Virus record (IMG/VR): IMGVR_UViG_3300034407_003411
Location: 588-64,587 of that record
Direction: 5' to 3' (one strand)
DNA length: 64,000 nt
DNA from: a virus
Lineage: Duplodnaviria > Caudoviricetes
Part shown: positions 12,104 through 36,996 of the stretch, in pieces
Layout of the letters: each line of letters opens with the position of its first letter
Position numbering within the stretch: the stretch's first letter is position 1
Made by a program: the position numbers and the translations under genes
The notes under the pieces: model-generated
Databases searched by the model: none
What the model was told of the DNA's origin: nothing
The model's input: only the letters and a program-made list of their open reading frames with translations

Positions 12104-12227
12104 TTATATAACTTTCTAATTTATCTATTAATACTAATACCTCATCTGGTTCCATTGTAATGGCACAACAAACGTGTACGTTCTCTTTTATGTCTTCTAA
12201 TATACGAAGAGCTTCTTGCTTATCCAC
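12093..12227 (-). CDS. 44 aa small ORF missing from the ORF track
   Basis: GTG start overlapping the queE stop (TAGTG); MDKQEALRILEDIKENVHVCCAITMEPDEVLVLIDKLESYINEQ; ends within the folE start region. Confidence 0.6.
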   Translation of the reverse strand: MDKQEALRILEDIKENVHVCCAITMEPDEVLVLIDKLESYINEQ

Positions 12228-12228
12228 T
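12199..12228 (-). promoter_or_regulatory. Bacteroidota-type promoter upstream of folE
   Basis: AGTG-N20-TATATTAG; lies inside the small ORF. Confidence 0.5.
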
Positions 12229-13045
12229 ATACTTCGCGTTGATCTTGAAAAGCTATGATATGTGGTCTCCAAGTCATTCTATAACCATTATCTCTTACCC
12301 AATCAAATAATACAGGATAAGATTTAAATAAAGCTTCTCTAGAATCACCAGCAGGCATAAACCAAACTTTTTCAGGTTTAACTTCTAACTGGGCTAAACA
12401 ATCCATAATTTCAGCTAATGCTTTTTGATCTTTACCATCCCATACTGGTTTGATGTGAAAGTCAGAATGATAAGCTATTGATTGTTTAATTGCAGCATAA
12501 TTAAGTCTTAACTTATTATGTTGTTTTACCATTTTTTCGTCTGTAACTTTTCCTTGAGGAGTAAGAGTACCAACAACGGGGACGCTATTACTAAACTTAG
12601 GAGAAATTGACAGGAGATTAATAGGATAATCAGTAGGAAGGAAATGTGATCCTTCAGTTTCAATAGTGATAAATATATTGTTTTCATGAGCAAAATGGGT
12701 TAATTCATTTACTAATGCTGCATGCATAGTAGGTGAACCCCCAGTTAACATCATTTCTTTTATATGAGGGTTTTTCTCATACATTGCAATAATGTCTTTA
12801 AAATTAAAGTGTCCTTTTTCTGGGTGAATACTTGTATACCAACTATCACACCATCCACCTTCACCGAAATAACATCTGTGAGTGCATCCTGTTGTTCTAA
12901 TTACTACTGTTGGGTATCCTGCTCTTGATCCTTCTGATTGTACTGCAGTGTAAATTTCTACAATGGGGAGGTTTTTATCGTAATCCTCAATACGTTTCAG
13001 CTGTTTGTGCATATTGTTAATTTTTTTAAGTGGTTTTTCATTCAC
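12227..13045 (-). CDS. queE: 7-carboxy-7-deazaguanine synthase (radical SAM)
   Basis: QSEGSRAGYPTVVIRTTGCTHRC...CDS, LTGG, IETEG, SISPK; next to queD and folE. Confidence 0.92.
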   Translation of the reverse strand: MNEKPLKKINNMHKQLKRIEDYDKNLPIVEIYTAVQSEGSRAGYPTVVIRTTGCTHRCYFGEGGWCDSWYTSIHPEKGHFNFKDIIAMYEKNPHIKEMMLTGGSPTMHAALVNELTHFAHENNIFITIETEGSHFLPTDYPINLLSISPKFSNSVPVVGTLTPQGKVTDEKMVKQHNKLRLNYAAIKQSIAYHSDFHIKPVWDGKDQKALAEIMDCLAQLEVKPEKVWFMPAGDSREALFKSYPVLFDWVRDNGYRMTWRPHIIAFQDQREV

Positions 13046-13054
13046 TATTATAAC

Positions 13055-13519
13055 TTATTCGCTGTAATAAGCAGCGTTTTTACCATGTTCTGCAAACTTA
13101 ACTTTCGATACTTTTACTCTACCTTCAGTTTCAGTTTTAACAAATTCATTTAATTTATGATAAATATATTCAGCAAATTTCTCTGCGCCAGTAGCTGGTA
13201 TTACTCTTACTTGAGCTACTCCTGCTTTATCCATCATTTTAAATGCTTGTAATTCAGGATCATCTTCTGCTATAATCATAGTATGATCAAACATATAATC
13301 CATCCATTCTTTAGGTGATTTACCATCGATTTTAGTTTTTGCTCTTTTCATGCCACCAAAATCCCACACCCAATTTCTTTCATCTAATCCTCCTTCAAAA
13401 TATACTTTAAAGGATATTCCATAACCGTGTACAAATCTACAATGTGTTGTCTGAGCTTTCCATTGACGAAACACTGTACTAAACCCGTCAAATACTTTAC
13501 TTGATTGAAACTTACCCAT
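13055..13519 (-). CDS. queD: 6-carboxy-5,6,7,8-tetrahydropterin synthase
   Basis: HCRFVHGY, WVWDFGG, FDHT, GAEKFA, EHGKNAA. Confidence 0.9.
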   Translation of the reverse strand: MGKFQSSKVFDGFSTVFRQWKAQTTHCRFVHGYGISFKVYFEGGLDERNWVWDFGGMKRAKTKIDGKSPKEWMDYMFDHTMIIAEDDPELQAFKMMDKAGVAQVRVIPATGAEKFAEYIYHKLNEFVKTETEGRVKVSKVKFAEHGKNAAYYSE

Positions 13520-13760
13520 TAAACCAATTTAATATGTCTTCCCTTGACTTGTTACCTACTGATCTAGCTATTTCATTATTGTTTTGATCCACTTTAACTA
13601 AAGTTGGGACTGATCTAACAGAATAATGAGATGCTTTTTCCATATCCTCATCAATATTTACTTTATGAATTGGAATATCTAAACTTAATTTGTCCATTAC
13701 TGGTCCTAATGCTCTACAAGGACCACACCATGGAGCTGTAAAATAAATTATTTTGTTCAT
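13512..13760 (-). CDS. thioredoxin
   Basis: WCGPC and SVPT motifs. Confidence 0.93.
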   Translation of the reverse strand: MNKIIYFTAPWCGPCRALGPVMDKLSLDIPIHKVNIDEDMEKASHYSVRSVPTLVKVDQNNNEIARSVGNKSREDILNWFNG

Positions 13761-13778
13761 TTTTAATTTTTATTATAA

Positions 13779-13985
13779 TTATACTAATTCTTCTACTATT
13801 CCTACTATCTCCGATAATATAAGAATAATTGCTGCAATCTCCAAACTAAATGGTAAAAAACAGTAACCTGCTATTCTAATTGCTGATTTGATAAAGCTTA
13901 CTATTTGATGCCATTTTTGATTAGGCATATTTTCTAAATTTTCTCTATCTTTAATTATTCCATCCATATCTTTTATTTTTATCAT
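13779..13985 (-). CDS. small membrane protein
   Basis: hydrophobic C-terminal half. Confidence 0.6.
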   Translation of the reverse strand: MIKIKDMDGIIKDRENLENMPNQKWHQIVSFIKSAIRIAGYCFLPFSLEIAAIILILSEIVGIVEELV

Positions 13986-14176
13986 TTTTTTCCGTTTTTC
14001 TTGTAATCAATTATAAACCCTACTGCTACTAGTATATTTAATCCTAAACTAGCTAGTATTTCATGTATGTCGTGGTAAACATTTAAATTTAAATGAACAT
14101 GACCAATAACCCAAAAGGGAATAGCCATTTGTTGACTATACCATATTAGTGCAAACTCAAGAAACTTTTTCACCAC
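13982..14176 (-). CDS. small membrane protein
   Basis: two hydrophobic segments; ATGA overlap with the next gene. Confidence 0.6.
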   Translation of the reverse strand: MVKKFLEFALIWYSQQMAIPFWVIGHVHLNLNVYHDIHEILASLGLNILVAVGFIIDYKKNGKK

Positions 14177-14864
14177 AACATGATTCTTGACTACTTGCTT
14201 CAGGTACTGGATTAGACTTTTGGTTAGTTATCATTATATTATAATTAATAACTAATCTATAATCATTTACTATTGGTGGGCAACCTGTGTGTAAATAGTC
14301 TTGGTTAAACATTATTATACTTCCTTTTTTAGGTTTATATGTTCTTTTAATTTCTAATTCTTTACCCAGAGTTAGATAATTTATTCCTTTATTTTTAAAA
14401 ATAATAGTATCTCCATCTGAGTCGTTAATATAATAAAGAAGAGTCCAACCTCCAAATCCTTCAAAATCACAGTGAGGGATAAAAGACATATCACTATTTT
14501 CAGGTACTTCTCTATAATTAAAATTAGATTTAATCTTCATTAAATCATAATCAAAGTTCATTACTTTAGAAATAGCATTTAAAGGTGGTAATACTATTTT
14601 ACTATAAACTTGTTCTTTTTGTTCCCACAATCCTTCTTCATAAAAAACACTTTGGAAAATTCCAGGCCTTAATTTAATTGTTTTATAATTATCCGTCATT
14701 GTAAGAGAATCAATGTCGATAGGATTTTTAATAATATTAGCCTGAGGTTTGTGTGTAGATGCAAACTCATACTTAATGTTTCCTAAATGTTGTTCTAAGA
14801 TATAATCTTGTACATCTTCAGGAACAATATTTTCTAAATGATATATTAAATTTTTTAGTAACAT
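14157..14864 (-). CDS. 2OG-Fe(II) oxygenase-like protein
   Basis: PHCD, LLYYINDSDGDT, PKKGSIIMF...HTG, RLVINYN; start moved to ATG 14864 because the longer ORF runs through the tRNA. Confidence 0.8.
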   Translation of the reverse strand: MLLKNLIYHLENIVPEDVQDYILEQHLGNIKYEFASTHKPQANIIKNPIDIDSLTMTDNYKTIKLRPGIFQSVFYEEGLWEQKEQVYSKIVLPPLNAISKVMNFDYDLMKIKSNFNYREVPENSDMSFIPHCDFEGFGGWTLLYYINDSDGDTIIFKNKGINYLTLGKELEIKRTYKPKKGSIIMFNQDYLHTGCPPIVNDYRLVINYNIMITNQKSNPVPEASSQESCCGEKVS

Positions 14865-14881
14865 TTTATTTTTATTCTTTG

Positions 14882-14954
14882 TTGTCTCGACAGGTCTCGA
14901 ACCTATACTCTTCTGGACCAAAACCAGACGTGTTACCAATTACACCACGAGACA
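14882..14954 (-). tRNA. tRNA-Gln(TTG)
   Basis: acceptor stem TGTCTCG/CGAGACA, D-arm TGGTGTAATTGGTAACAC, anticodon arm TCTGG-TTTTGGT-CCAGA, T-arm ATAGG-TTCGAGA-CCTGT; CCA not encoded. Confidence 0.93.
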
Positions 14955-14961
14955 TTTAAGT

Positions 14962-15375
14962 TTAATAACTTAACCCGTAATCACTTACCTTTGTAAATAA
15001 CCACGCTTCACCATACCCACTTACTGAGTCAGGTTTCATAACAATTAACTGCATACCTTTAAGATAAAATAACAACCTATATTCTTCATTTTCTTTTTGA
15101 ACATAAATGTATTTTTCTTCAAGTGTAAAATTACCTTTTGCTACTTCTCTACCATCAGGAGTATCAGACATTCTGTAAAATGTATCTTTATCTTCACTGT
15201 AATTCATATAAAGAACACTTGAACCATCCCAACTTTGCCAAGTACCATAAATATTTTCATTATCAGTACCAAGCCCAATTCTTTTTTCTTGGGAATAAGT
15301 TGTTGCACAAAACATTAAAGCAAAAAATAATAATGCAATAATAGCAAATTTGTCTATTAAATCGAATTTTTTCAT
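14962..15375 (-). CDS. secreted hypothetical protein (lipocalin-like beta fold possible)
   Basis: signal peptide followed by Q (TTYS/QEK), IYGTW motif. Confidence 0.6.
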   Translation of the reverse strand: MKKFDLIDKFAIIALLFFALMFCATTYSQEKRIGLGTDNENIYGTWQSWDGSSVLYMNYSEDKDTFYRMSDTPDGREVAKGNFTLEEKYIYVQKENEEYRLLFYLKGMQLIVMKPDSVSGYGEAWLFTKVSDYGLSY

Positions 15376-16169
15376 TAATTTGAATATTCTAATAAAACTT
15401 TTTCTACTGAAGCTTTAGCCACTTCATAAGAAACTGGACCTGTCTCGTCCTCATATTGCACTGGGTCAGGTCTTCCTAACGCAATAAACGCTTCTATTCT
15501 TTCCACAGACGAAGCTGATTTGTAATCTGAATTACCACTTGGATAAGGTTTGTAAGATGTATTTGTTCTCTTATAAACTTCATCAAAGTCAATTTTTAGT
15601 CTAGCACATAAAATTTCTCCATTTTGTAAAATGCCAAATTTATCAGTATCTAAATAAGGTGTAAAGTAACCTACTTTATCTGCATCCCAATTACCAATTC
15701 TAAAAGCTGCATCATCTGCATCTCTAAATTCTTGTCTACAATCAGGATAAACAGCATGGTCACCTGCATGAATACCTAAAGCAATATCACAAGTCTCTCC
15801 TGTTCTATTTGCTACAGATAATGCTACAGCTTGAGTAATAGAAGCAAACATTTTATTTCTATTAGGTACAACTGTTTCTTTCATGTTATCTTGCTCATAA
15901 TGTCCTTCTGGTACATCATCTCCACCTTGAACTAAAGCTGAATCTAGTAAGTCTACTAATCCATCTAGTTTAATTTGTCTATAATTTACTTTGTGACCAT
16001 TATCTGCTAGATAATTAATTAGAGATTGAGCTCTTTCAAGTTCAACTCTATGCTTTTGACCATAATCAAAAGAGATACCTGTTACAGTATCATATTCATT
16101 GATAGCTCTTAATAATAGGGTGCTGCTATCCATTCCACCACTTAACGAAACTACTACGTGTTTTGCCAT
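15375..16169 (-). CDS. queC: 7-cyano-7-deazaguanine (preQ0) synthase
   Basis: SLSGGMDSS, FDYGQKH, TVVPNRN, HAGDHAVYPDCR. Confidence 0.96.
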   Translation of the reverse strand: MAKHVVVSLSGGMDSSTLLLRAINEYDTVTGISFDYGQKHRVELERAQSLINYLADNGHKVNYRQIKLDGLVDLLDSALVQGGDDVPEGHYEQDNMKETVVPNRNKMFASITQAVALSVANRTGETCDIALGIHAGDHAVYPDCRQEFRDADDAAFRIGNWDADKVGYFTPYLDTDKFGILQNGEILCARLKIDFDEVYKRTNTSYKPYPSGNSDYKSASSVERIEAFIALGRPDPVQYEDETGPVSYEVAKASVEKVLLEYSN

Positions 16170-17871: not shown

Positions 17872-18630
17872 TTACAGTTGAAATAAATCAAATATTTCTG
17901 TTTGGTTTAACGGTCTTGTCCACATACCAAAATCATCCATTTTACCATTAAAGAAATACCAATAACCATTACTTGATAATGTTTCTCCAATAGCTAAACC
18001 ACTAACAGTTTGAGGTAAAACCATACCAGTTGTACCACTAGTAACTAATTCAGAATTTATATAAAATTTATAATTACTTCCTTCTAGGGTAAATGTTACA
18101 TGAGTCCACTCATTAAATTCAACATTTATAGAAGATTCAACCATCCCTAATAATGGGGATGGACTTTGTCCGTCTCCAAAAACAAATACTAGTTTACCAT
18201 CACCATTAATTTGGAACCTAAATATATTCATTCCATCACCATCCCATCTAGAGGCAATAGTATAATATTCTATTCTATTTATTTGTCTTTTAATAGGATT
18301 TACCCAAGCACTTAAAGTAATATTTTCACTATTTAATAACTCATTATGGGGTATCGTAATTAGATCATCTCTTCCTCCTTCTGACTCAGTATCATTAGTA
18401 TCAAATTTAGCAGCTTGGGTTGGATTACCATACTGATCTGATGTTAATTGGACTTCATAAGTAGAAGTTGGAAAATAATTAGGAGATTCATCTTGGAAAT
18501 TTGAATTAAAAGGCATCCATACTGTTGGGTTACTTGGAAGCTTAGATTCATTTACGGGGTCTGAAATTTCAAATGATTCATCGCTACATGAACTTAAAAT
18601 AACAATACTTAATAATAACATTTTTTTCAT
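17872..18630 (-). CDS. lipoprotein with LamG/concanavalin A-like domain
   Basis: lipobox ILSS/CSDE; ITLSAWV, NEWTHVTFT, KFYINSEL, FFNGKMDDFGMWTRPL. Confidence 0.85.
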   Translation of the reverse strand: MKKMLLLSIVILSSCSDESFEISDPVNESKLPSNPTVWMPFNSNFQDESPNYFPTSTYEVQLTSDQYGNPTQAAKFDTNDTESEGGRDDLITIPHNELLNSENITLSAWVNPIKRQINRIEYYTIASRWDGDGMNIFRFQINGDGKLVFVFGDGQSPSPLLGMVESSINVEFNEWTHVTFTLEGSNYKFYINSELVTSGTTGMVLPQTVSGLAIGETLSSNGYWYFFNGKMDDFGMWTRPLNQTEIFDLFQL

Positions 18631-20402: not shown

Positions 20403-20432
20403 AAAAATTCCCGTACCTTGCAGTACGGGAAT
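20403..20432 (-). terminator. rho-independent terminator
   Basis: ATTCCCGTAC-6nt-GTACGGGAAT stem followed by a T-run on the minus strand. Confidence 0.75.
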
Positions 20433-20449: not shown

Positions 20450-20704
20450 TTATTTTTTAACTATGTGATACAATACAAAAGCTCCTACTAAACCTAGTAG
20501 TCCTTCTGCGTTAAGTCCTCCTAAAATAGCCATGATATTATCTACCACAGATATATTAGGCCAAAAAGGGATTCCTGCTCCACTGAATAGTACTTCGAGT
20601 ACTACTCCTAAAGCGATTAAAGACACACCTATGTGGGTCAGTTTGTCAGCCCAAGAGCCGACCTTGTTTAGAATTTCCATAAAATTGGGTTTTAAGTTAA
20701 ACAA
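20450..20704 (-). CDS. small two-TM membrane protein (holin candidate)
   Basis: two hydrophobic helices, basic C-terminus, near the lysin candidate; start may be MEILNK. Confidence 0.6.
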   Translation of the reverse strand: MFNLKPNFMEILNKVGSWADKLTHIGVSLIALGVVLEVLFSGAGIPFWPNISVVDNIMAILGGLNAEGLLGLVGAFVLYHIVKK

Positions 20705-20717: not shown

Positions 20718-20960
20718 CTAGTTTACTTCTTCGTTGTTTTTCTTACCGAAGATTTTGCCTACCTCAGCGATTCCGAATGAACCGAGGGTTATGATTACGA
20801 AAGAATTATAAATGTAATCTTGTATTACTATTTCTTTACCATAGATACCTGTTATAATATCTACTAATGCAAAGATAATCATTACAATAAAGGATGAGAA
20901 TCCTACTACTGATTTTTCATTAATGTCGTTGTTGTCTTTAAACAAATCTTTAAATGCCAT
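20718..20960 (-). CDS. small two-TM membrane protein (holin candidate)
   Basis: two TM helices, charged termini, late-type motif upstream. Confidence 0.6.
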   Translation of the reverse strand: MAFKDLFKDNNDINEKSVVGFSSFIVMIIFALVDIITGIYGKEIVIQDYIYNSFVIITLGSFGIAEVGKIFGKKNNEEVN

Positions 20961-21015
20961 ATTTCTAGTTTTTAAAAATTAGCAAAACTATTAATGGAAC
21001 CTTATTAGTTGTGAT

Positions 21016-21023
21016 TATAAATA
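21016..21023 (-). promoter_or_regulatory. putative late promoter (TATTTATA on coding strand)
   Basis: same octamer precedes most structural genes. Confidence 0.55.
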
Positions 21024-21446
21024 TTAAAATCTGTTGGAATTTTGCGCTTCTTCGATAGCTTCATTTACTTCTTCTACGCTTACAGGAAATTCTAGATCTA
21101 ATCCTGCTTTAAATTTAATTAAATTATCTCGAGTTATTATAAACATAGTTGGGGCCATTCTAATTCTATATTTTTTCTTTGCTTCTGGAGCTTTAGCTAT
21201 ATCTACTCTATAATAATCTACGCCTGGTCTATCTGCTAAATCTTTCCAATTAGGGTAACAATTTATTTCATTAAATTTAGCCCAATATTCAACTACTATT
21301 ACTTTATTATCATCATCTCCAAAGGCAGAATTACCATTTACAACTTCTTCATAGTTTGAATCATCTAACCAATATTTTTCTGGAACGTCTTGTTGTCCTA
21401 AAAGAATTAAAGGCATCAATGAAAACAATATTAGTAAATTTTTCAT
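21024..21446 (-). CDS. secreted thioredoxin-fold protein lacking CxxC
   Basis: signal peptide; VVEYWAKFN, YRVDI, YRIRMAPT. Confidence 0.7.
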   Translation of the reverse strand: MKNLLILFSLMPLILLGQQDVPEKYWLDDSNYEEVVNGNSAFGDDDNKVIVVEYWAKFNEINCYPNWKDLADRPGVDYYRVDIAKAPEAKKKYRIRMAPTMFIITRDNLIKFKAGLDLEFPVSVEEVNEAIEEAQNSNRF

Positions 21447-21449
21447 ACG

Positions 21450-21734
21450 TTATCTTTGTTTAGACATCTCGTACATACGTTCTTCTAGCTTATCAAATTT
21501 TTCTAAAAGCATTTCAACGTCTTCTTGAGTGTCCATTATTGTTTGGCGAATTAACTCATCCTTTAAGTCATATTCAACCCTTTCAATAACTGGTTCTGGT
21601 TGTGTTGCAGCATATGCTATATCTGCCTTTAATGTAAAATACATACCTGCTAGAGAAACAGTAAATGCTACTATCATTCCAATAGTTTTTAAATCTAAAG
21701 TTATTTTAGTATCTTCTCCTATTTGCTTTGCCAT
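21450..21734 (-). CDS. membrane-anchored coiled-coil protein
   Basis: single TM helix then coiled coil. Confidence 0.65.
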   Translation of the reverse strand: MAKQIGEDTKITLDLKTIGMIVAFTVSLAGMYFTLKADIAYAATQPEPVIERVEYDLKDELIRQTIMDTQEDVEMLLEKFDKLEERMYEMSKQR

Positions 21735-22927
21735 TATTTAAAAGTATAATTTAATCCGAAGGTTGTTTGATATAATTTGCTATCCCACATTTTAGAATAT
21801 TCACCTTCTATAAAAATTCCTAAATTTTTTCCTATTTTAGTTCCTAAATTAACACCAAAAGAATAATCGTGCCACTGTTCACCTTTTAAATTATTATTAT
21901 GACCACCTAATCCCCAGCTATTTCTATGCATGTAGCTAAAATCTTCTTCTCCTCTAATATATCTGTGGTATGGTAAAATATAATTTGCGTATGCATGTAA
22001 CCAAAAATCTCTTTTATAATGGTAAAAATCTACACCTACTATTGGAGCTAAATCTAACCAAGGATCTAATAAATCCCAAGCTTCACCATTAAAGCGATTC
22101 ATTAACCCAGGCATTATAATTTCTCTAAATTCTAAATCTGTTTGAGCAACTTCATTTCCGTCTGCATCAATCCAATACCAATCTTGAATTTGATTACCAT
22201 TATTGTCTGTACGAGTATAGAATATATCACTAAAACCATATTCTCTACCTAATTCATACCATTGGTTAGTTGGATATTGATTTCCGAATTCATCAACTGT
22301 CATTTCATTTAACCAAATTTCTACAGGATTATAACCATAAGCTCTTTCATGTCCTCTTAATATAGCTCCAGCTGAAAAACTAAACTTTTTTCCTATTGGT
22401 AATCTACCTCTTACTTCAGCTGAATTGTATTTAAGATTAATTTTACCTACTTCTCTAGCTTGTAATTTTACAATATGATATTTGCCTGTATGTTTTAGAA
22501 AATAATTATAGTTGGTAAAATCTTCTCCTCTCCATCTTTCTTTTTCATAATGGAATTGATATTCTAATCCTTGTACTGCTGATGTTGGGGCAGAAAATAC
22601 TAATTGTTCTTCTGTACCATCATAGAAATTTTTTGGTTTTCTTTCATAGTCAAATCTGGCTAGTTTTCTTATACCAAATCCGTATCTGTAGTCAAAAGGG
22701 TATTTTGGAGTGTTATCAACTACGTCAGGAATTGAATATAAACTTCCATCTTGGTTTGTTCTTAAAAAATAAGTAGGCTCTGCAGCCTCAATTGAATTTG
22801 AAATATCACCAGCGGCATATACAGTACCATATTTTAAGAAATCTTTATAGATATCTTTAAAAATTTGGGCTTGTAAAACAGTTGGTGAAAATAAGATAAA
22901 CGAAACAATTAATACTAATATCCTCAT
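21734..22927 (-). CDS. secreted outer-membrane beta-barrel-like protein
   Basis: signal peptide/Q, aromatic alternating strands, C-terminal TTFGLNYTFK (BAM beta-signal-like). Confidence 0.7.
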   Translation of the reverse strand: MRILVLIVSFILFSPTVLQAQIFKDIYKDFLKYGTVYAAGDISNSIEAAEPTYFLRTNQDGSLYSIPDVVDNTPKYPFDYRYGFGIRKLARFDYERKPKNFYDGTEEQLVFSAPTSAVQGLEYQFHYEKERWRGEDFTNYNYFLKHTGKYHIVKLQAREVGKINLKYNSAEVRGRLPIGKKFSFSAGAILRGHERAYGYNPVEIWLNEMTVDEFGNQYPTNQWYELGREYGFSDIFYTRTDNNGNQIQDWYWIDADGNEVAQTDLEFREIIMPGLMNRFNGEAWDLLDPWLDLAPIVGVDFYHYKRDFWLHAYANYILPYHRYIRGEEDFSYMHRNSWGLGGHNNNLKGEQWHDYSFGVNLGTKIGKNLGIFIEGEYSKMWDSKLYQTTFGLNYTFK

Positions 22928-22987
22928 ATTATTATCGTTTTATGTTTGTCAATAAATATATGAAAATTTAATTATATTCGAAGAAAT

Positions 22988-23428
22988 CTAAAATTTTATT
23001 CGATCAATTGCCTTTTTTACCGCAGAAGAAAATGTTGTTTTATTAAATGGTAATTTATCATTATTTAAATCAATAAAAGTTGATTCAACTGTAGATTTAG
23101 CTTTACCAATTACTTCAATTTCTTTGCCATCTATATAAACTGATAGTTTAACAATTGTCTTTTTTGCAGCTTTACTCCAAACTCCAAATTCAATACTTGT
23201 TGTTGGTGCTTCAATGGATTTTACTATTACTGTTATAGGTTTTCCATCCATACATAGTTCATATTTATCTGAAATTACATCTTCCATTATTTGTTTTATA
23301 CCAAATATTATACGGTTTTTACTAATTTCTTCCATTTGAACCTGTGTACTTACTTTAGTTACCGTATAACATTCTTGTGATAATGCAAATACAGGTAAGC
23401 ACATTAATAGTATAATTATTTTTTTCAT
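22988..23428 (-). CDS. secreted hypothetical protein
   Basis: signal peptide/Q; ends FNKTTFSSAVKKAI, resembling the C-terminus of the neighbouring CsgG-like protein. Confidence 0.65.
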   Translation of the reverse strand: MKKIIILLMCLPVFALSQECYTVTKVSTQVQMEEISKNRIIFGIKQIMEDVISDKYELCMDGKPITVIVKSIEAPTTSIEFGVWSKAAKKTIVKLSVYIDGKEIEVIGKAKSTVESTFIDLNNDKLPFNKTTFSSAVKKAIDRIKF

Positions 23429-23429
23429 A

Positions 23430-24587
23430 TTAAAATCTTATTTTACCACCAGTTAATACCTGGAAGTTTAATGCATTTCCTTGTGAATGCCAAACTCCAG
23501 TAAAACTGATATTATATTTAAATGTTTTTGTTATTTTTATATCCCATGAACTAAAAGGTACTATTAACATACCTGGATCCCACCATTTACCTTCATAATA
23601 TTGAGTAAATGGAGAATAAACACCTAATAGTAAAGCTGATGTTGTAATTTTTTCATTAATTTTAAAATTTCTATGTATCCCAGCTACTGATGATATATTT
23701 TGTAGTTCTCGTTTACCTAATTTACCTATTGTAAGATTAATACCAGCCATACCTGTAAATTTCTTTTTATAAAATTTAAAGGATTCTAAAACAGTAGTTG
23801 TATTTAAATGATTTAAATTCCAATCTGTCATTGTAGTATTTGCACCTACTAAATTAAATGTTCTGTTTGGGTTAATCCATGATTTATAAAGTGTTAAACT
23901 AAAATCATTAGTAACAGATGTATATGTAAGTAAAGCTCCTTTAATTCTAGTTTGTTCTGTATTGGCGTGTGTAATTGAACTAACTACTTTTACTTGTCTA
24001 CCATTTGAATTATCTTGATTATCAATAACTACAATATCACCTGATGCTATCAATGAACCAGCATTTTTATTAGCTTCTGCACTTCCACCATCAGCTGCAT
24101 TTGAAAGAGAATTAGCTAGTGAAGTAGCAATAGCCCCTTCAGCTTCTTCTTCTTCATTTTCCTCATCACCCTCACCTGCAGAATTATCTATTGCTTCTGC
24201 TACTGGAGCTGCTGTAGATGATGCTGCTTGAGGTAACATATCTCCTCCTAATATAGACATTATATTTGTAACAACTGTAATTGTATTTTGTACTGCTGCT
24301 GAGTTAGCTGTGTTTAATAATACTTGAGTTACACTTTGACATGGACTTGAAGAATTAGCTTGAGTAACTAAGTCTAACCAAGAATCAAAAGTACCATTAG
24401 AAAAGTCATCTTGAGTAAATGTTTGAACATTACCAAAATAATTTAATGCAACATTATTACTACCACCTATTTGAATTGTTTGTTGAGTTAAAGTACAAGG
24501 ATCTGTAAACGTATAAGACCATTGGCCATAACTTACCAGTGGTAAGAGAAATAAAATTAATAATATTTTATTCTTTAAATATTCCAC
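23430..24587 (-). CDS. secreted protein with C-terminal beta-barrel-like domain
   Basis: signal peptide/Q, acidic low-complexity linker, alternating strands, terminal GGKIRF. Confidence 0.65.
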   Translation of the reverse strand: MEYLKNKILLILFLLPLVSYGQWSYTFTDPCTLTQQTIQIGGSNNVALNYFGNVQTFTQDDFSNGTFDSWLDLVTQANSSSPCQSVTQVLLNTANSAAVQNTITVVTNIMSILGGDMLPQAASSTAAPVAEAIDNSAGEGDEENEEEEAEGAIATSLANSLSNAADGGSAEANKNAGSLIASGDIVVIDNQDNSNGRQVKVVSSITHANTEQTRIKGALLTYTSVTNDFSLTLYKSWINPNRTFNLVGANTTMTDWNLNHLNTTTVLESFKFYKKKFTGMAGINLTIGKLGKRELQNISSVAGIHRNFKINEKITTSALLLGVYSPFTQYYEGKWWDPGMLIVPFSSWDIKITKTFKYNISFTGVWHSQGNALNFQVLTGGKIRF

Positions 24588-25272
24588 GTTTTATCATCCT
24601 TTTTACGATACGGGCAGTTCCAGATTCTAAAGCTTTTTTAGTAGCAATTCCTATTGTGGATTTATTAAATTGAACTTCATTATCCTCTCCAATTTGAGAT
24701 CGTTTAATTGTAACAGCTTCACCACTACCACTGCCTGTAAAAATAGTTCCAGTCTCAGCATTAACAAATCTTACTTGCATACCAATAATGGTTTTTAATA
24801 CAGTTTTAACTCCATTAACTGTAACTTCTTCTTCCTCAGAGATAGAATAATCATAGATTTCTACATATACAAAATATTCTGCTAAGACAACATTACCTAT
24901 AACTTGAATATCATTTGCTGATATACCTTTAGCTGCGGCTTGATGTTGCTTAACCATTCTTTGTTTAATTTCTTCTTTATCTTCGGTAAATAAAAATCTA
25001 TCAGTCCATTCTAAATAAGATAAAGTAATATTACTAACACCTAATCCTACTCTATTTTCTCTTAATTCAGGGTAAAATTCATATAATTCTGGTGTAAAGC
25101 CAATATTTAAGACTTGAATTGGTAATTGATAATCTAACATATAATCAGATACTTCATCTATGTCAGCATCTTGTTCAAATTTACCTTTATAATTTTCTGT
25201 TTCAGTTTTACCTAATTGAGCATTAACTGTAAAACTTAAGAGTAACGATATGATTAAAAATATTCTTACCAT
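24568..25272 (-). CDS. CsgG/HfaB-like envelope protein
   Basis: signal peptide/Q; LEWTDRFLFTE, AEYFVYVEIYDYS, MQVRFVNAETG..FTGSGSG, KKALE. Confidence 0.7.
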   Translation of the reverse strand: MVRIFLIISLLLSFTVNAQLGKTETENYKGKFEQDADIDEVSDYMLDYQLPIQVLNIGFTPELYEFYPELRENRVGLGVSNITLSYLEWTDRFLFTEDKEEIKQRMVKQHQAAAKGISANDIQVIGNVVLAEYFVYVEIYDYSISEEEEVTVNGVKTVLKTIIGMQVRFVNAETGTIFTGSGSGEAVTIKRSQIGEDNEVQFNKSTIGIATKKALESGTARIVKRMIKRGIFKE

Positions 25273-25523
25273 GTTATTTCTTCTTTTTTTTCTTCTTTTT
25301 TAGGAGGTATAACTATTGTTTTAGAAATTACAATAGTATCTTTAGAAGTTGATGGTGGGTTAATTCTTTGTTCCATTATAGGTGGTTCTGCAACTTCTTC
25401 CTTAGGGGAAAAAATTGATTGCATATTAGCTATTAATAATGCAAAAGCTGCTGTTATAACTAATCCTATACCTGTTACTATTTGGTTTTTAATTTCCGAA
25501 AAAAATCCTTTATTTTCACTCAT
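25266..25523 (-). CDS. small single-TM protein
   Basis: TM helix followed by a Pro-rich tail. Confidence 0.6.
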   Translation of the reverse strand: MSENKGFFSEIKNQIVTGIGLVITAAFALLIANMQSIFSPKEEVAEPPIMEQRINPPSTSKDTIVISKTIVIPPKKEEKKEEITW

Positions 25524-26254
25524 TTTTTAATTATTTTAAATGTTTTAACAAATCTACCATTAGTTACTTGTAGCAAATAAATTGCAGATGCTAAATCTGA
25601 TAGATCCATTTGGAATGAAACGTAACCACTAAAAAATCTCTTTGTAGTTGATTTCATTAATGTTCCGTTATACGTAATTACTCTAATTGTATAAAAATCA
25701 TTATCAGGTACTGTTAATTCAAATGTTAATGGACCTGATACTGGAACTGGGTATACTATACCATAAATGCCATCTGCTGGTTGTGTATTGAATGGAAGTG
25801 ACATTTTATTAACATATCCATCTGTGTTATCAACATCAATATCCCACCCTAAATCTGTACCTGCTGTTTTTCTTCCTATAGTAATTGGTATTTCAGTCCA
25901 ATTTTGATCAATAACCTTAAATCTTACTGTAAATAATTCAGTTGTATTACTTATAGTAAAGTTACCAAAAGAGGCATCATAACCTCCCCACCTTACTTTT
26001 TCACCTTCCCAATCCTGTGTATATGTTAGCCATTCTTGTGCTTTAGCTGTTACAGTAATTTCCTCAAATTTTAAGTATTGAGAATCAAAATTTAAAGCAA
26101 ATTCTAAACTTCCAACTGTTTCTCCTGATGTTTCAATTTCTACAGGTAAATTAATATATTCACTAACAGGAACCTCAATCTCAGGTACGTTAAATACGAC
26201 CTGAGAATGAGCTACTGTTGTTATTGTTAGTAATAATATTAATAATAATCTCAT
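25520..26254 (-). CDS. cohesin-like domain plus T9SS type A C-terminal sorting domain
   Basis: signal peptide/Q; LPVEI..VGSLEFALNFDSQYLKF...LFTVRF; CTD VYPVP...YNG...DLSDLASAIYLLQV...KTFKIIKK. Confidence 0.8.
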   Translation of the reverse strand: MRLLLILLLTITTVAHSQVVFNVPEIEVPVSEYINLPVEIETSGETVGSLEFALNFDSQYLKFEEITVTAKAQEWLTYTQDWEGEKVRWGGYDASFGNFTISNTTELFTVRFKVIDQNWTEIPITIGRKTAGTDLGWDIDVDNTDGYVNKMSLPFNTQPADGIYGIVYPVPVSGPLTFELTVPDNDFYTIRVITYNGTLMKSTTKRFFSGYVSFQMDLSDLASAIYLLQVTNGRFVKTFKIIKK

Positions 26255-26257
26255 TTA

Positions 26258-27340
26258 TTAATTTAATCCTGTTCCATTAACATCACCTAATATTAACATA
26301 TAGAAATTACCAGTTGTAGTTCCATTTATATTTGGTGATAAGAATTCTACTAGACCTGGTATTGAACTAGACTGATCTGAAGTTGCATTATTAATAGTAT
26401 TATATTGAGCTTCAGTAAAGAATAACACATCTGGGTTTATAGGATAACCTGTGCCGTTTTGTGCTAATCTAGCAAATAATAAATAAGAATCTGCTACTGT
26501 AATTCCATTTGTTTGGTTTATATTACCAGTATAAAATTGTATACCTGATGTTGCTTGTGCTCCTGCTGCTATTTGAGCAATCATATTAGCATCAGCTGTT
26601 GATAAAGCTGTACTTGCATTTAAGCCACTTGCAATCTTAAGTCTAATCTGCCAGTAATCTTGATCTAGATTTGCTGAGAATGTTGCTTTTCCATCTGCTC
26701 CAGTTGTTACTGTAGCTACATCTGTCCAAGAACTACCATCTGCAGATTTTTGTAAAATTACAGGGATAGATTCAGCTGGATTAGAAGGATTATTTAGAAT
26801 AGTTGCTGCATAATCAAATGCTGGTTCTGTAAAGTTACCACCATTATCGGAAGTGCCTAAGACAGCATCAGTACCATCAGCTTTTGCATAATAAGCAGTT
26901 AAGTTGTTAGTAAAATCAATGTCAGCAACTGCACCATTAGTATAACTAGATTTAAATGGTAATGAGACATCAAACATATTACCTGCAGTAATATCAAAAG
27001 TAGTAGTACTACCAGTATAAACCCATACAACTTTTACTACACCACTTGCTATACTTGTAGATAAATAAGCATCAGTACCTGAGGTATTGTTGTAAGTTAC
27101 AGTTGGAGGATCAAATACATTTACATCATAATTAAAAGAAAATTGAATACCTTTTACTTTAGTACCTGAAGTATTGTCATAATAAAGATCAATTACAGTT
27201 GGATTTGATGAATTGGTAGATTCTAAAGCATAACTTGAATCAAGAATCACATAAGGCTTAGTAGCATCAGGTGATGTGGTTTGGGCATAAATCATGGTTG
27301 TTAGCATTAACCCCGCTAACGTTAAGAGTAATTTTTTCAT
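26258..27340 (-). CDS. secreted cohesin-like plus dockerin-like protein
   Basis: signal peptide/Q; VKGIQFSFNYD; VTTGADGKATF; LSTADA...GNINQTNGITVADSYLL; terminal LGDVNG. Confidence 0.72.
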   Translation of the reverse strand: MKKLLLTLAGLMLTTMIYAQTTSPDATKPYVILDSSYALESTNSSNPTVIDLYYDNTSGTKVKGIQFSFNYDVNVFDPPTVTYNNTSGTDAYLSTSIASGVVKVVWVYTGSTTTFDITAGNMFDVSLPFKSSYTNGAVADIDFTNNLTAYYAKADGTDAVLGTSDNGGNFTEPAFDYAATILNNPSNPAESIPVILQKSADGSSWTDVATVTTGADGKATFSANLDQDYWQIRLKIASGLNASTALSTADANMIAQIAAGAQATSGIQFYTGNINQTNGITVADSYLLFARLAQNGTGYPINPDVLFFTEAQYNTINNATSDQSSSIPGLVEFLSPNINGTTTGNFYMLILGDVNGTGLN

Positions 27341-27362
27341 TGGTCTAGTAAATTTATATTGT

Positions 27363-27370
27363 TATAAATA
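27363..27370 (-). promoter_or_regulatory. putative late promoter (TATTTATA)
   Basis: 22 nt upstream of the cohesin-dockerin gene start. Confidence 0.6.
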
Positions 27371-27376
27371 TATAGA

Positions 27377-28576
27377 CTAATTCTTATGTCCCGCTCTTAT
27401 TAAATAAAATATAGTAGAATCACCATTACTTCGATCAAATAGACTATAACTTCCATATCCAAAATTTTCAGATTTGTCATCAGTATCTGTGTCTAGAGGA
27501 TCCCAAAAATATGGAGCTTGTTGGTAATGGAAAACTTTTGTAGAAGGAGTAGTATTAGAATACTGTGTAAATATACCATTCATATAAGCTAACATAGAAT
27601 ATAAATCTGCAACACTAAATTTCCCGTCATTATTAACATCCATTCTCCAATAATCTTTAGAATTATAAACCCCACTAATTAATTTACTAGTAAAGTAACT
27701 GATATCATTTAAAGTAGGTATTGATAATGCAGGTTGTACTATATCAATTGTGTAATCATAGCTATTATAATCTAAAGTAGTATTAAATGAATAATATCCA
27801 TTTGAATTTGTAGTTGTAGTAGCTTGCGTTGTATATGAAAAGCCTACTTGGTTTTTATTTTGAGTTTTTAGTTGTACTGTAACCCCAGATAAGGCTTCTT
27901 CTTCTGCTCCGTAAACATATCCAGTATGAGTTATAGGTTCAAAATTAGGATCAGTAGCAGACCACTCTCCAAATGGATGTGAAGAACCATTTGAACCGCC
28001 TAGTTGATTATAGCTACTACCATTTGGTATTTTATATTGAAAATTAGCAGCACCTACACCACCATAATTTTGAATTCTATATTCAAACTCATACCATGTA
28101 TCTTTATCTAGAGTTGCTGTACCATAAGCCCATACATTCCAACCATAATGTTTAGTAACTATATCATCAGTTTTACCAATACCTTTAATCATAAACTCAT
28201 GTGAGTCATCAGTATATGTTCTAAATGAATATAGGCCTGTTTTATTAGGTTTTACCCAACCGTGATAGATAATTGCATATCTTTCTCCAACTGCATCCCA
28301 CCTTGGTGGGTTCCATAATTGTTGTGGGGTATGATTACCGCCTCTTGGTCCTTGATAACTTAATATATCAACAGTTGTATCTAAATAAAGTGTAGTACCA
28401 TTAGAACTAAGATTAACCATGTTGTCAAACTCTATATGAGAATTAGCATTACCTGAATATCCAGTCCCTGAAGTACCAGCACCATAGTGAGTCTTAAGTG
28501 ATCTTAAGTTTACAGTAGTCTGTGCATTTATGAATCCACTAATTAAAATTAAAAAGCAAAGTATTCTGGTTTTCAT
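27377..28576 (-). CDS. secreted PA14-domain protein with dockerin-like EF-hand motif
   Basis: signal peptide/Q; PA14 YHGWVKP.KTGLYSF.TYTDDS; TTNSNGYYSF; MDVNNDGKFSVADL. Confidence 0.78.
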   Translation of the reverse strand: MKTRILCFLILISGFINAQTTVNLRSLKTHYGAGTSGTGYSGNANSHIEFDNMVNLSSNGTTLYLDTTVDILSYQGPRGGNHTPQQLWNPPRWDAVGERYAIIYHGWVKPNKTGLYSFRTYTDDSHEFMIKGIGKTDDIVTKHYGWNVWAYGTATLDKDTWYEFEYRIQNYGGVGAANFQYKIPNGSSYNQLGGSNGSSHPFGEWSATDPNFEPITHTGYVYGAEEEALSGVTVQLKTQNKNQVGFSYTTQATTTTNSNGYYSFNTTLDYNSYDYTIDIVQPALSIPTLNDISYFTSKLISGVYNSKDYWRMDVNNDGKFSVADLYSMLAYMNGIFTQYSNTTPSTKVFHYQQAPYFWDPLDTDTDDKSENFGYGSYSLFDRSNGDSTIFYLIRAGHKN

Positions 28577-30294: not shown

Positions 30295-31110
30295 TTATTT
30301 ATTACTTTCTGCTGTTACTCTTACATTTGAGATAGTATATTCTGATCCACCTTTACATAAATCAGACCAACCACTACAATTAGGGTCACTATAATTATAT
30401 AAATTATCAGGATTAGGTGAAAATCCTTGCCATAATGAAGCAACAACTTTATATCCTTTTTCCATGTTTTCTTTTAAACCATCTAAGCTAGTTAATCCAC
30501 TTCCTGGACCTGCTTCATTATTTTTAAAATCATATACTACTACACTATTATCTCCTTGAACATAAGTAGTTGTCATATTAGTATAATCATCATTAAATTC
30601 AGTTACAATATTAAATGGTAATGAAGGATCTATTTTACTTGCATCTACAATACCAGTACCAGTTGTTCCAGTAAAACAAGAAGTATCTCCTCCTAAAAAT
30701 GCCCATTGATAGTTTTGAATTTTATTTATGTGTATTGTTGCCTGAGTAGCTACATTTCCATTAGTTTCTAAAAAATCTATTTCATCACAACAGTTTGTAC
30801 AACCATCACCAGAATCACAATATTCTGTTTCATTCATAACTAAATAAAAAGTTGCATTAACAAACTTTTGACCTGCTAATTTTGAAATATCTACTGTTGC
30901 TGAGATTTTAGAAATATTTTTATACCCTTGAGCAGAACGAACTCTACCTGGGTTAAAAAATACCTTATCTTCTCCAATTACAGGAGCACCTTGATCACAT
31001 CCTTGATTTGCGTCAAGATTAAAAGTAGGGGTAAATTCTTGTACTGAAACTTCCGAATTATTACATCCTATAAAAATAAGAGATAATAAAATAATTAAAT
31101 AATTTTTCAT
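30295..31110 (-). CDS. lipoprotein, clan GH-B glycoside hydrolase with GH7-like signature
   Basis: lipobox IFIG/C; VDISKL, NATFYLVM, YCD, CCDEIDFLETN, IDPSLPFNIVTEF, MEKGYKVVASLW, ISNVRV. Confidence 0.7.
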   Translation of the reverse strand: MKNYLIILLSLIFIGCNNSEVSVQEFTPTFNLDANQGCDQGAPVIGEDKVFFNPGRVRSAQGYKNISKISATVDISKLAGQKFVNATFYLVMNETEYCDSGDGCTNCCDEIDFLETNGNVATQATIHINKIQNYQWAFLGGDTSCFTGTTGTGIVDASKIDPSLPFNIVTEFNDDYTNMTTTYVQGDNSVVVYDFKNNEAGPGSGLTSLDGLKENMEKGYKVVASLWQGFSPNPDNLYNYSDPNCSGWSDLCKGGSEYTISNVRVTAESNK

Positions 31111-35634: not shown

Positions 35635-36468
35635 TTAGAAGGGTAGATCATCTTTTTGATTATCTCCATCAAATAATGAATCAAACTCATCAGTTTTCTT
35701 TTGTTTAGCTTTTGTAGTGTCTAAAGCAAAATTACTAGATGGTTTATCATCAAAATCACTTGCTGGTTCAGATATAATATCTCCCTCACTTTCACCACCT
35801 TCAGGTTCTAACCATTTTTCTAAAGCGGATTTCATTTCATCAAATGTAAATTGTTTGAATTCCTTTTTAGGATCTGGTTGGTCTTTTAACCATTTTTCTA
35901 CTAATGTAGCATCATCACTAAGCGCAGTTTGTTTAAGTCTAACTCTAACTGAGGACTTGTTGTATTGAGTACCTGTAGCTTCTGGTCCTACTGTTTCTAT
36001 AGTAAGGTCTCTACCATTTACTACATCAGTATAATCACCAATCTCATCATCCACTGCTAATGAAAGTAATTCTTCATATATCAGTTTCCCGAATTGCCAT
36101 AGTCGAACTCCTTTGTCCTCCTCTCCTCTAACGATAACTGGAGCGAAAATCCTAGTTTTGGCATCTAACTTTTTAGCAAGTAGATAATTTTCTTTGCTAT
36201 ATTCTTCTCTTAATTTTTTCGCGAATAAAGCAATTGGGTCTTTCTCTCCCCACGTTTCAGGTGAAAGCATAACCTTATTAGTAATACCATAATAGAATTT
36301 TAATTCCGTGAATGGGTTGTTAGAATTAACGGCACTAGGCACAATTCTAATCTGTTGTTTACCTACTGTAGGTCTCCAAAATGTAAGAGAATAATCTCGT
36401 TTGGCACCACTGGCAGGTGTTTTTTGTTGGAGCGTATCCAACTTCTGTTTAAGCATTGATAAATCCAT
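35635..36468 (-). CDS. single-stranded DNA-binding protein (gp32-like)
   Basis: FWRP..GKQQIRIVP, GVRLWQFGK, DYTDVVNGRD, acidic tail DDLPF. Confidence 0.88.
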   Translation of the reverse strand: MDLSMLKQKLDTLQQKTPASGAKRDYSLTFWRPTVGKQQIRIVPSAVNSNNPFTELKFYYGITNKVMLSPETWGEKDPIALFAKKLREEYSKENYLLAKKLDAKTRIFAPVIVRGEEDKGVRLWQFGKLIYEELLSLAVDDEIGDYTDVVNGRDLTIETVGPEATGTQYNKSSVRVRLKQTALSDDATLVEKWLKDQPDPKKEFKQFTFDEMKSALEKWLEPEGGESEGDIISEPASDFDDKPSSNFALDTTKAKQKKTDEFDSLFDGDNQKDDLPF

Positions 36469-36528: not shown

Positions 36529-36996
36529 CTATACTTCAATTATTTTGTAAATTTTTGTATTTAATTGATTTAATTCATTGTGTTGTGTCAATAAAATACA
36601 ATTTTTATACTGTTGCCAATTTACTTGATACTTAGTATCAACAACACCACCATTAAGCTTTTTAATTAATTCATTTAAAGCATTAATTGTGTATAAGGTA
36701 TTAGATTCCTTTTTTCTATGGACTAAGATAGTATTATCTGGAATGGTATGAACATTGCCTTGGTCGACATTATAAGTGATAACAAATTCATCTTTACCTA
36801 CAATTTCTAAGACAAAAAGTTTGTTGTAAATGATTGTATATTTTGATTGAATTTCTTCAAGCAAATTATCTAAGTTATCTATATCAGTAAAGGTGCAAAA
36901 CAGCTTATTATTCAAATCGCCAATGTTATTTAATGATGTTATTACATCATAGTTCACATTATACGTATTCACAGGTCTATCTAAAGTCGTAATCAT
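36529..36996 (-). CDS. hypothetical protein
   Basis: NKLFCTF, HRKKESNTLYTINALN; overlaps the upstream gene end. Confidence 0.7.
   Translation of the reverse strand: MITTLDRPVNTYNVNYDVITSLNNIGDLNNKLFCTFTDIDNLDNLLEEIQSKYTIIYNKLFVLEIVGKDEFVITYNVDQGNVHTIPDNTILVHRKKESNTLYTINALNELIKKLNGGVVDTKYQVNWQQYKNCILLTQHNELNQLNTKIYKIIEV

Follow-up and report, generated by a model that had tools for sequence, protein, structure and literature searches.

A phage-borne cohesin and dockerin-like gene block with a type IX secretion tag in T4-like myophages of Flavobacteriia

We evaluated a cluster of ten genes (28576 to 21024, − strand) within a 64,000-nucleotide stretch of viral DNA, hereafter the window (positions 588 to 64,587 of IMG/VR record IMGVR_UViG_3300034407_003411), and found its core to be a widespread, phage-borne variant of the cohesin-dockerin assembly that is coupled to the system for type IX secretion (T9SS) and to CsgG-fold and barrel-like partners. 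This conserved core is seven genes, whose products we call the head (a lectin-type domain with a dockerin-like module), the adaptor (a cohesin with a dockerin-like module), the carrier (a cohesin with a T9SS C-terminal domain, CTD), an 85-aa membrane protein, the CsgG-fold protein, the stalked protein and the small secreted protein. Six of these families are still found as a set where two genes have fused and the head gene has changed place, which we regard as the strongest evidence that they form one working system. With modest confidence, we read the block as a phage-encoded envelope module, all of whose proteins would probably leave the cytoplasm of the infected Flavobacteriia cell.

A conserved block carried by phages

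To establish the extent of the unit, we used a profile of the carrier, which recovered 49 viral contigs. Forty of these hold the head, adaptor, carrier, CsgG-fold, stalked and small secreted protein genes in a single order, and the DNA end cuts the block in the other nine. The last three genes of the cluster (21734-22927, 21450-21734 and 21024-21446) follow the block in 3 of the 49 loci only and are therefore accessory, such that the ten genes that a sequence-only reading of this DNA had taken as one unit come down to a conserved seven. For the 85-aa protein (25266..25523, − strand), which has one membrane segment and a tail rich in Pro and in Lys/Glu, BLAST matches occurred in the closer loci only; at the corresponding position, the cultured Flavobacterium phage immuto has an ORF of 104 aa. 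PHROGs profiles assigned no named family to any block protein, returning one weak match to an unknown family.

The same families recur, rearranged, in a diverged lineage. Here eight representative proteins (~500-640 aa) carry in mid-protein the dockerin-like module that is C-terminal in head and adaptor (hereafter the C-module), and in seven of the eight a whole adaptor is aligned (28-34% identity) followed by a carrier (23-28%), the eighth (P0293, 501 aa) being without the carrier part. Two fusion proteins were scanned with Pfam, and both have Cohesin and Por_Secre_tail behind the module; the fusion clusters count 3-110 members, on contigs of up to 281 kb. Gene order in 20 of 23 fused-lineage loci is fusion, CsgG-fold, stalked, head and small secreted protein, with heads of 327 or ~760 residues. 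At one locus (L074:11854-14565) the head and small secreted protein make up a single ORF of 903 aa, which might reflect either another fusion or an error in sequencing.

The window is a fragment of a T4-like myophage of Flavobacteriia, as judged from PHROGs profiles and a capsid comparison. Its parent record (64,587 bases) represents ~40% of a genome by CheckV estimate and contains PHROGs matches to structural genes (portal, head protease, major head protein, tail sheath and tube, baseplate hub) and to replication and other genes (family-B DNA polymerase, clamp loader, helicase, both subunits of ribonucleotide reductase (RNR) and a GroEL-like chaperonin), nearly all of the genes so named in the window lying on the − strand. 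The nearest cultured relative is Flavobacterium phage vB_FspM_immuto, a 160-kb Baltic Sea myophage (Immutovirus) with a major head protein 54% identical to that of the window, and no other cultured phage resembles the cluster at the DNA level (immuto, 68% identity over 35% of the cluster). The immuto record holds the same block, with the cohesin gene and a C-type lectin gene annotated. Near-identical window DNA was present in 14 seawater or marine runs from 8 studies.

The sequence-only reading had named a misassembled or recently captured host operon among the findings that would undo it, and we give that explanation next to no credence. The one thing found that could speak for it is a block-bearing 248-kb contig filed under a Flavobacteriaceae metagenome-assembled genome (MAG). 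Against it, the block is carried by 49 viral contigs, by the 23 fused-lineage loci and by a cultured phage, and a pattern scan of one genome per species (185,579 species), which reaches close relatives only, yielded just 2 MAG contigs, both of which carry the phage block itself. Because viral contigs and a cultured phage carry the block and the species-genome scan returned only the phage block, the evidence supports the cluster being phage DNA and no captured host operon. The even GC across the window (27-36%) and the 1-5 nt junctions in the run of genes between RNR and late genes likewise speak against capture.

As for layout, the ten ORFs run head to tail on the − strand, as had been described from sequence, and most of their junctions are overlaps or gaps of 1-4 nt. 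Wider gaps separate the head and adaptor genes (36 nt) and the genes meeting at 22988/22927 (60 nt), and a gap of 63 nt follows 21024. The head gene begins 5 nt past the end of the RNR large-subunit gene, and the block is placed between RNR and late genes. In eight of the ten products, Gln comes directly after a hydrophobic, signal-like start (AQ, AQ, SQ, AQ, GQ, SQ, AQ, GQ), as judged by eye from the translations rather than with SignalP, and the other two instead have an internal membrane segment (25266-25523, residues 14-32; 21450-21734, residues 11-29); both the eight signal peptides and the two membrane anchors reported earlier are thus seen. A Gln after the signal peptide is the ‘Q-rule’ of Bacteroidetes in the available text of one source (PMC5837995), and Q-rule-obeying phage proteins are noted for Porphyromonas phages in that of another (PMC10367356).

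Head, adaptor and carrier

The carrier (25520..26254, − strand; 244 aa, signal peptide and Gln) passes all three of the relevant family thresholds, which bears out the earlier call of a cohesin joined to a T9SS type A CTD. Its cohesin (25871-26194, − strand) scores 33.9 bits against PF00963 (gathering cut-off 24.1), and its CTD (25523-25756, − strand) scores 29.7 bits against Por_Secre_tail PF18962 (cut-off 27) and 33.4 bits against NCBIfam TIGR04183 (cut-off 23). The CTD match spans residues 167-244 of 244, behind a signal-like N-terminus, and it is the sole CTD match in the whole 64.6-kb record.

For the adaptor (26258..27340, − strand; 360 aa, signal peptide and Gln), which combines a cohesin, a beta-sandwich and a dockerin-like C-module, the evidence for the cohesin is structural. 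An AlphaFold model built with 23 relatives in the alignment is confident over residues 20-170, and of the 59 PDB structures that Foldseek matched to it at E<=1e-3 the majority are cohesins, a few pilin chains also appearing; the best match of the cohesin domain (residues 21-178; 26807..27280, − strand) was 5nrk_A (E 4.7e-6, TMt 0.71). A profile search of PDB sequences gave no matches for the adaptor, and its cohesin stays under the Pfam PF00963 cut-off (E 0.7; 16.4 bits vs 24.1). The claim of a cohesin and a dockerin-like region in this gene thus stands by fold and by homology of the C-module, and its cohesin part falls short at the Pfam threshold.

The adaptor C-module (residues ~190-355; 26276..26773, − strand) is homologous to that of the head (hhalign of the head-module alignment A5 vs the adaptor alignment A4, 98.2%, E 3.3e-14 over 159 columns). 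In both, a beta-sandwich precedes a helix, Ca-type loop and helix, and a tail of ~60 residues comes last. In the head, the helix, Ca-loop and helix lie at residues 292-336 (27569..27703, − strand), with the loop DVNNDGKFSVAD, and alignment A5 shows invariant D, R, D, N and D columns, the first helix having a conserved Asp and no loop.

We assessed how the C-module relates to true dockerins. Single-sequence Pfam and NCBIfam scans of the window proteins made no Dockerin, PA14 or CsgG call, one of 27 whole heads matched Dockerin_1 at E<=0.01, and the matches of module members to that family span profile positions 2-23, which is one repeat; the head and adaptor C-modules fall outside Pfam Dockerin_1 membership and should not be filed as members. 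Searching with a profile of the head module among 1.84 billion representatives returned 123 proteins at E<=1e-3. Pfam was run on 35 of these, of which 14 were heads, fusions or other members of the same family and 21 were partial or multi-stretch hits, and true Dockerin_1 was over cut-off in 15 of these 21 (best among the profile hits, P0321, E 1.1e-10, profile positions 6-69). Because the head-module profile finds true Dockerin_1 proteins, the C-module is, by sequence comparison, best described as a diverged relative of dockerins. Against PDB sequences, the head C-module gave non-significant matches only, among them an X-dockerin chain (2b59_B) at E 1.4.

We predicted the complex of the adaptor cohesin (residues 21-178) with the last 190 residues of the head, each with its own alignment, alongside three controls. 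The three runs scored 0.85, 0.86 and 0.85, against 0.01 for the best of the controls; among solved complexes 116 of 157 attain this mark, and among mismatched pairs 2 of 215 do, counts that are approximate here given that the alignments were ours. At least 97% of contacts are common to the runs, and partner pLDDT is 80-81. The predicted interface on the head takes in residues 292-301 and 315-336, i.e., both dockerin-like helices and the loop, and that on the adaptor cohesin takes in residues 63-66, 92-96, 103-113 and 147-158, including nine invariant residues (K63, Q66, V104, W106, Y108, G110, G156, T157, D158). The placement of the head's dockerin-like helices on the adaptor cohesin is supported by a model only, and to this degree it backs the head-to-adaptor link in the earlier proposal of a scaffold running from a CTD-bearing cohesin through a cohesin-dockerin extender to a PA14 tip.

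At its other end, the head (27377..28576, − strand; 399 aa) carries, after a signal peptide and Gln, a PA14-like lectin domain (residues 21-212; 27941..28516, − strand), followed by a prealbumin-like beta-sandwich with sub-threshold CarboxypepD_reg/SdrD_B matches at residues 218-288 and then by the C-module. The window head has no match to Pfam PA14 (PF07691) at E<=10. Its N-terminal domain aligns (A9) with two related heads that pass PA14 (L040 and L050; 29 and 30.1 bits vs 24), and all nine matches of the A9 profile among PDB sequences at E<=1 are PA14 proteins (RsgI3, Epa1, Epa9; best RsgI3, E 1.5e-4). The PA14 and dockerin-like call earlier made for this gene therefore survives as profile-level likeness, with neither family passing on the single sequence.

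Across loci, the heads are conserved in their last ~150-190 residues only, this being the stretch common to the heads of all related loci, and differ in what precedes it. Among 27 heads, 15 carry Lectin_C, 4 GEVED, 2 PA14 and 6 no named N-terminal domain, the PA14-like head of the window being counted among these six; the wider head-module family adds Laminin_G_3 (ConA-like), legume lectin and pentaxin. On dockerin-like modules, no glycoside hydrolase was found in the 27 heads plus 12 further family members, which bear lectin-type domains only. Mapped on an adaptor tree of 47 rows, the five head types require at least 7 changes (minimum possible 4, shuffled mean 20.9). These observations support head domains that are lectin-type and repeatedly exchanged (PA14, C-type lectin, GEVED, ConA-like), as if tracking a variable glycan.

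The CsgG-fold, stalked and small secreted proteins

The CsgG-fold protein (24568..25272, − strand; 234 aa, no Cys) is the most conserved gene product of the block, with 87-93% identity among close loci, and its relatives in public data form more than 5468 clusters when grouped at 90% identity. Its top structural matches are to CsgG, both by Foldseek (4uv2, E 5e-6) and by VIA (6lqh_A, Z 10.5, rmsd 5.5, 152 residues aligned), the next family in VIA standing at Z 8.5, with PelC at 8.3, a FlgT ring, and LptE at 7.8. Likewise, a language-model feature search linked it to CsgG/HfaB clusters at 0.94. Among viral structures, Foldseek gave nothing at E<=1e-3, the top match being a phage ‘CsgG’ at E 2.2e-3, and tblastn against 50,697 phage records matched four immuto records only. 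The CsgG-like assignment of the sequence-only reading thus holds as a likeness of fold in a low-confidence model, and not at the level of sequence families.

That reading had gone on to give the phage its own membrane channel, and this is not supported. The CsgG-fold protein is without any Cys, so it has no lipobox Cys and is no lipoprotein, and its predicted hairpin tips are charged (SEEEEVTVNGVK; IKRSQIGEDNE), without a membrane-like hairpin. Because of the missing lipobox Cys and the charged tips, a pore is not indicated by the model.

The stalked protein (23430..24587, − strand; 385 aa) consists of an N-domain, a low-complexity linker and a C-terminal region of ~210 aa. Its alignment (A6) shows two invariant Cys in the N-domain and a conserved C-terminal region that ends in an invariant Phe, and the linker is 33 aa long in the window vs 70-161 in all 25 aligned relatives. 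Language-model features point to Tsx/OmpK, KdgM, OmpG and Phage_OMP (0.90-0.93), which together with the invariant Phe gives us a lead, and a lead only, that the protein may end like an outer-membrane barrel. A profile search of the PDB gave non-significant or low-complexity matches only (best E 0.071).

The small secreted protein (22988..23428, − strand; 146 aa) is the last member of the core and has two invariant Cys (alignment A3). A C-terminal motif links it, weakly, to the CsgG-fold protein (hhalign 33%, E 4.6e-4), so that its earlier description as CsgG-related is kept at that faint level.

PelC-PelB and LptE-LptD resemble this arrangement in that a small alpha/beta protein of CsgG/PelC/LptE fold is encoded beside a barrel-ended protein. 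The likeness to PelC and LptE is one of fold, drawn from a low-confidence model in which both score under CsgG (VIA Z 8.3 and 7.8 vs 10.5), and PelC and LptE are lipoproteins, unlike the Cys-less protein of the block.

Proposed assembly, alternatives and genomic setting

Taken together, these results lead us to the following proposal. Block proteins would cross the inner membrane by Sec, after which the dockerin-like module of the head would pair with the adaptor cohesin, as modelled, and the adaptor's own dockerin-like module may bind the carrier cohesin, such that head, adaptor and carrier would assemble in the periplasm. T9SS cargo folds in the periplasm, so partners may leave with the carrier, whose CTD, the only one in the system, would take the assembly through the host T9SS. 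Late in infection, the sugar-binding head would thereby come to lie on the outer membrane or beyond it. Together, the CsgG-fold, stalked and small secreted proteins would form the outer-membrane part of the same machine; we read the three as a possible anchor or platform for assembly that resembles PelC-PelB and LptE-LptD, with the CsgG-fold protein perhaps serving the stalked barrel as ring or plug and not as a CsgG-type pore. As to purpose, it is our guess that the head binds host or particle glycans and thereby masks receptors on the infected cell and its debris, or holds the cell to a substrate; candidate roles are the masking of receptors, adhesion to neighbours or particles, and involvement in egress.

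More tentatively, and with clear doubt on our part, phages of Bacteroidota might employ the cohesin-dockerin pairing as a plug-in adaptor for the host T9SS, one CTD carrier exporting whichever lectin head matches as a folded, hitchhiking assembly, and a phage-built outer-membrane platform (CsgG-fold ring, stalked barrel and small disulfide protein) holding that assembly on the dying cell. The block would then represent a virus-encoded machine for surface display, of exchangeable glycan specificity, and the first piggy-back export through T9SS.

Late expression is suggested by a promoter-like motif. The 10-mer ATATTTATAA stands 30 nt upstream of the adaptor start codon (27362..27371, − strand) and occurs 11 times in the window, every copy being intergenic and on the − (coding) strand, where 2.5 are expected and none of 100 shuffles reaches 11. 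The copies lie at 21015-21024, 27362-27371, 45319-45328, 47673-47682, 49307-49316, 51362-51371, 51678-51687, 54682-54691, 54709-54718, 61781-61790 and 63712-63721. Nine precede structural genes, mostly by 15-40 nt, and the other two precede the adaptor and the small membrane proteins after the block. This makes it a candidate late promoter and suggests late expression from the adaptor gene onward in the window phage. The T4 late-promoter word TATAAATA itself was at chance frequency in the window, its reverse on the coding strand having led us to ATATTTATAA, and a sigma-70 promoter scan found fewer sites than in shuffles. At the immuto-type loci L028-L055, a short GC hairpin with a T run, terminator- or attenuator-like, sits between the head and adaptor genes.

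A number of results weigh against the envelope-module reading. The use of the CTD, the passage of a multi-protein assembly through T9SS and the retention of cargo on the cell are all steps that we infer. The two cohesins, of carrier and adaptor, scarcely match each other (hhalign 7.9%, not significant), and the adaptor C-module modelled alone has a pLDDT under 50 (30-40). Heads show a single evident Ca loop (one canonical, invariant D-x-N-x-D-G-x-x-x-x-x-D); the window head scores 13.6 bits against Dockerin_1 (PF00404), under the cut-off of 22.9, and of 21 module members five match that family at E<=10 (best E 0.034), none passing. Many cohesin-dockerin complexes are already solved, so the passing complex prediction may reflect likeness to these rather than binding, and it covers one of four possible pairings. 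On the membrane side, the model of the CsgG-fold protein has a low-confidence pLDDT of 56.5, the protein does not match Pfam CsgG (PF03783), a profile of 12 relatives gave 0 matches among PDB sequences at E<=10, and the barrel lead for the stalked protein rests at 106-135 shared features, under the level typical of true family members. The late-promoter-like motif stands upstream of the adaptor in only 5 of 35 distinct regions of relatives. In its favour, contigs of a relative (90-95% likeness) from RNA libraries cover most of the cluster and bridge 24916-26757 and 26816-28369, which is compatible with transcription; RNA libraries can hold DNA, contigs of this kind cannot show transcription, and gaps in their cover carry no meaning.

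The sub-threshold scores of Dockerin_1 and of the adaptor cohesin, together with a complex pass that may come from likeness to solved structures, would suit independent secreted Ig-like or lectin proteins that never assemble, their cohesin and dockerin likeness being a shared fold without binding. We consider this quite unlikely, given that adaptor and carrier are fused in seven representatives, that six families are co-inherited through rearrangement, that the C-module is kept while N-terminal heads swap, and that the predicted interface falls on invariant residues.

The fate of the exported proteins allows another explanation, namely that the CTD carrier and its bound partners are secreted free into the water, as happens to many type A CTD cargoes, and act away from the cell. 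Such a complex might cover nearby cells, particles or debris, sparing progeny from loss or shutting out competitors. This explanation draws on the same domain evidence as the main reading, and type A CTD cargo of T9SS can be released as well as surface-attached. Moreover, T9SS cargo of ‘Cryophage’, including a PA14 gene, was read as secreted factors and termed a unique occurrence there, in the available text of that report (PMC7468147). Such release would leave four strictly co-inherited membrane or outer-membrane genes without a role, and a diluted soluble lectin in seawater seems of little use, though this last is argument only; we find it unlikely.

A further alternative, which we rate as improbable to a like degree, concerns the end of infection, and arises from what lies downstream of the block. 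The gene string runs straight into two small membrane proteins (20718-20960 and 20450-20704, − strand), holin-like by size and membrane segments only, and ends at a strong terminator-like hairpin (20407-20432, − strand), after which come a DUF5675 protein, which matches Tlde1 weakly, and a membrane protein of four segments whose match to an Rz-like spanin is likewise weak (E 0.0043). On this explanation, the membrane, CsgG-fold, stalked and small secreted proteins would weaken or open the outer membrane with or in place of spanins, and the cohesin-lectin part would hold the device to envelope glycans; phage CsgG/CsgF have been proposed as lysis pores in the Methylophilales phage Melnitz, by the available text of its description (PMC9004378). 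Against an egress device, the genes that follow the block gave no Pfam match to an endolysin or holin family, the spanin score lies well short of what a family call needs, a membrane-like hairpin is missing from the CsgG-fold protein, and the T9SS tag, the two cohesins and the repeated swaps of lectin heads are left unexplained.

Returning to the envelope module, its relation to known systems can be stated piece by piece. Cohesin-dockerin assemblies, cellulosomal and non-cellulosomal, offer a parallel: the block has two cohesins, one of them joined to a surface-targeting tail, and an adaptor with a cohesin and a dockerin-like module stands between anchor and terminal subunit; the predicted contact, both helices on a cohesin sheet, is also alike, and the beta-sandwich directly before the dockerin-like module in the terminal subunit recalls the type II X-dockerin arrangement. 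Unlike these assemblies, the block is phage-encoded, its anchor is a T9SS CTD rather than an SLH or sortase signal, and it is co-inherited with CsgG-fold and barrel-like genes; its cargo, unlike that of the cellulosome, is lectins, with no enzyme found among the heads; and its module, unlike dockerins, is sub-threshold in Pfam, with one clear Ca loop and a C-terminal extension of ~60 aa.

Among phages, T9SS cargo genes occur in Cryophage and also in crAss-like contigs (PMC6949934), and as described in the available text of these accounts they resemble the block in having type A sorting domains, one with PA14, that vary between phage variants. There, each cargo bears its own CTD, whereas in the block a single CTD sits on the cohesin carrier and the heads are dockerin-like; the available portions of both accounts (PMC7468147, PMC6949934) make no mention of cohesin, dockerin or CsgG-fold genes. 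The ‘curli-like’ csgG/csgF clusters of pelagimyophages (HTVC008M group; PMC7029224) and of Melnitz (PMC9004378), given as of unknown function in the text available, are likewise found in T4-like marine phages, with a CsgG-fold gene in a small operon beside unknown partners and with no amyloid subunit present. The block differs from them in that its CsgG-fold protein has no detectable sequence similarity to theirs (tblastn) and no lipobox Cys, and in that its gene is tied to cohesins and a T9SS tag; no CsgF was seen in the block, where no search aimed at it was made. The sequence-only reading had known of no described phage system of this kind, and the searchable full-text literature (which excludes subscription journals) indeed gave no description of cohesin/dockerin, T9SS and phage in combination, although phage T9SS cargo and phage csgG/csgF are each in print. 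The listed papers that name phage immuto concern other topics, by their titles and abstracts.

In the sea, Flavobacteriia count among the main degraders of algal polysaccharide. If the envelope-module reading is right, phages would re-dress the surfaces of these cells with lectins of their choosing, which would bear on aggregation, particle attachment, superinfection and receptor masking. Cohesin-dockerin biology would then reach into viruses and T9SS, and a modular display system for Bacteroidota would be at hand. The block is common, and a cultured phage-host pair carrying it exists (phage immuto with Flavobacterium sp. LMO8), making direct testing possible.

Of the accessory genes, the first (21734..22927, − strand) encodes a secreted 397-aa protein of no family, for which an outer-membrane barrel is a candidate reading; its relatives elsewhere number 2330 clusters, none with a Pfam domain among the 120 listed, and profile comparison detected no relation to the stalked protein. 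Next comes a 94-aa protein with one membrane segment (21450..21734, − strand), and then a secreted thioredoxin-like protein (21024..21446, − strand) that falls 0.4 bits short of PF00085 (23.1 vs 23.5 bits) and has a single Cys, at residue 63, hence no CxxC pair. The earlier call of a thioredoxin fold without its Cys pair was right about the Cys and just misses the family threshold; the fold is likely, from its sequence, and not catalytic.

Elsewhere in the window, a 252-aa protein (17872-18630, − strand) has a ConA-like Laminin_G_3 domain (90.4 bits) and matches part of a PHROG for virion structural proteins. The word TATATTTATAG, close to the late-like motif without being the exact 10-mer, lies at −35 of its gene, and a second upstream word, CGTATATT(T)AC, precedes the same gene and three others (3426-3737, 35635-36468 and 36977-38245) and may be another promoter class. 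Between the RNR large- and small-subunit genes sits a 271-aa gene (30295-31110, − strand) with a lipoprotein-like start (…FIGC) and nine Cys, and without a Pfam, NCBIfam or PHROGs family. The family-B DNA polymerase is in two ORFs with small ORFs between them (6928-7860 and 8499-10199, − strand), which match the C- and N-terminal parts of phrog_262, respectively, and may be a split gene or contain an inserted element. Genes for 7-deazaguanine (queuosine-type) synthesis (GTP cyclohydrolase, QueD, QueE and QueC-like) occupy 10341-16169 (− strand), with a tRNA-Gln at 14881-14954 within this region, and immuto is named in the available text of a paper on deazaguanine DNA modifications (PMC10516641).

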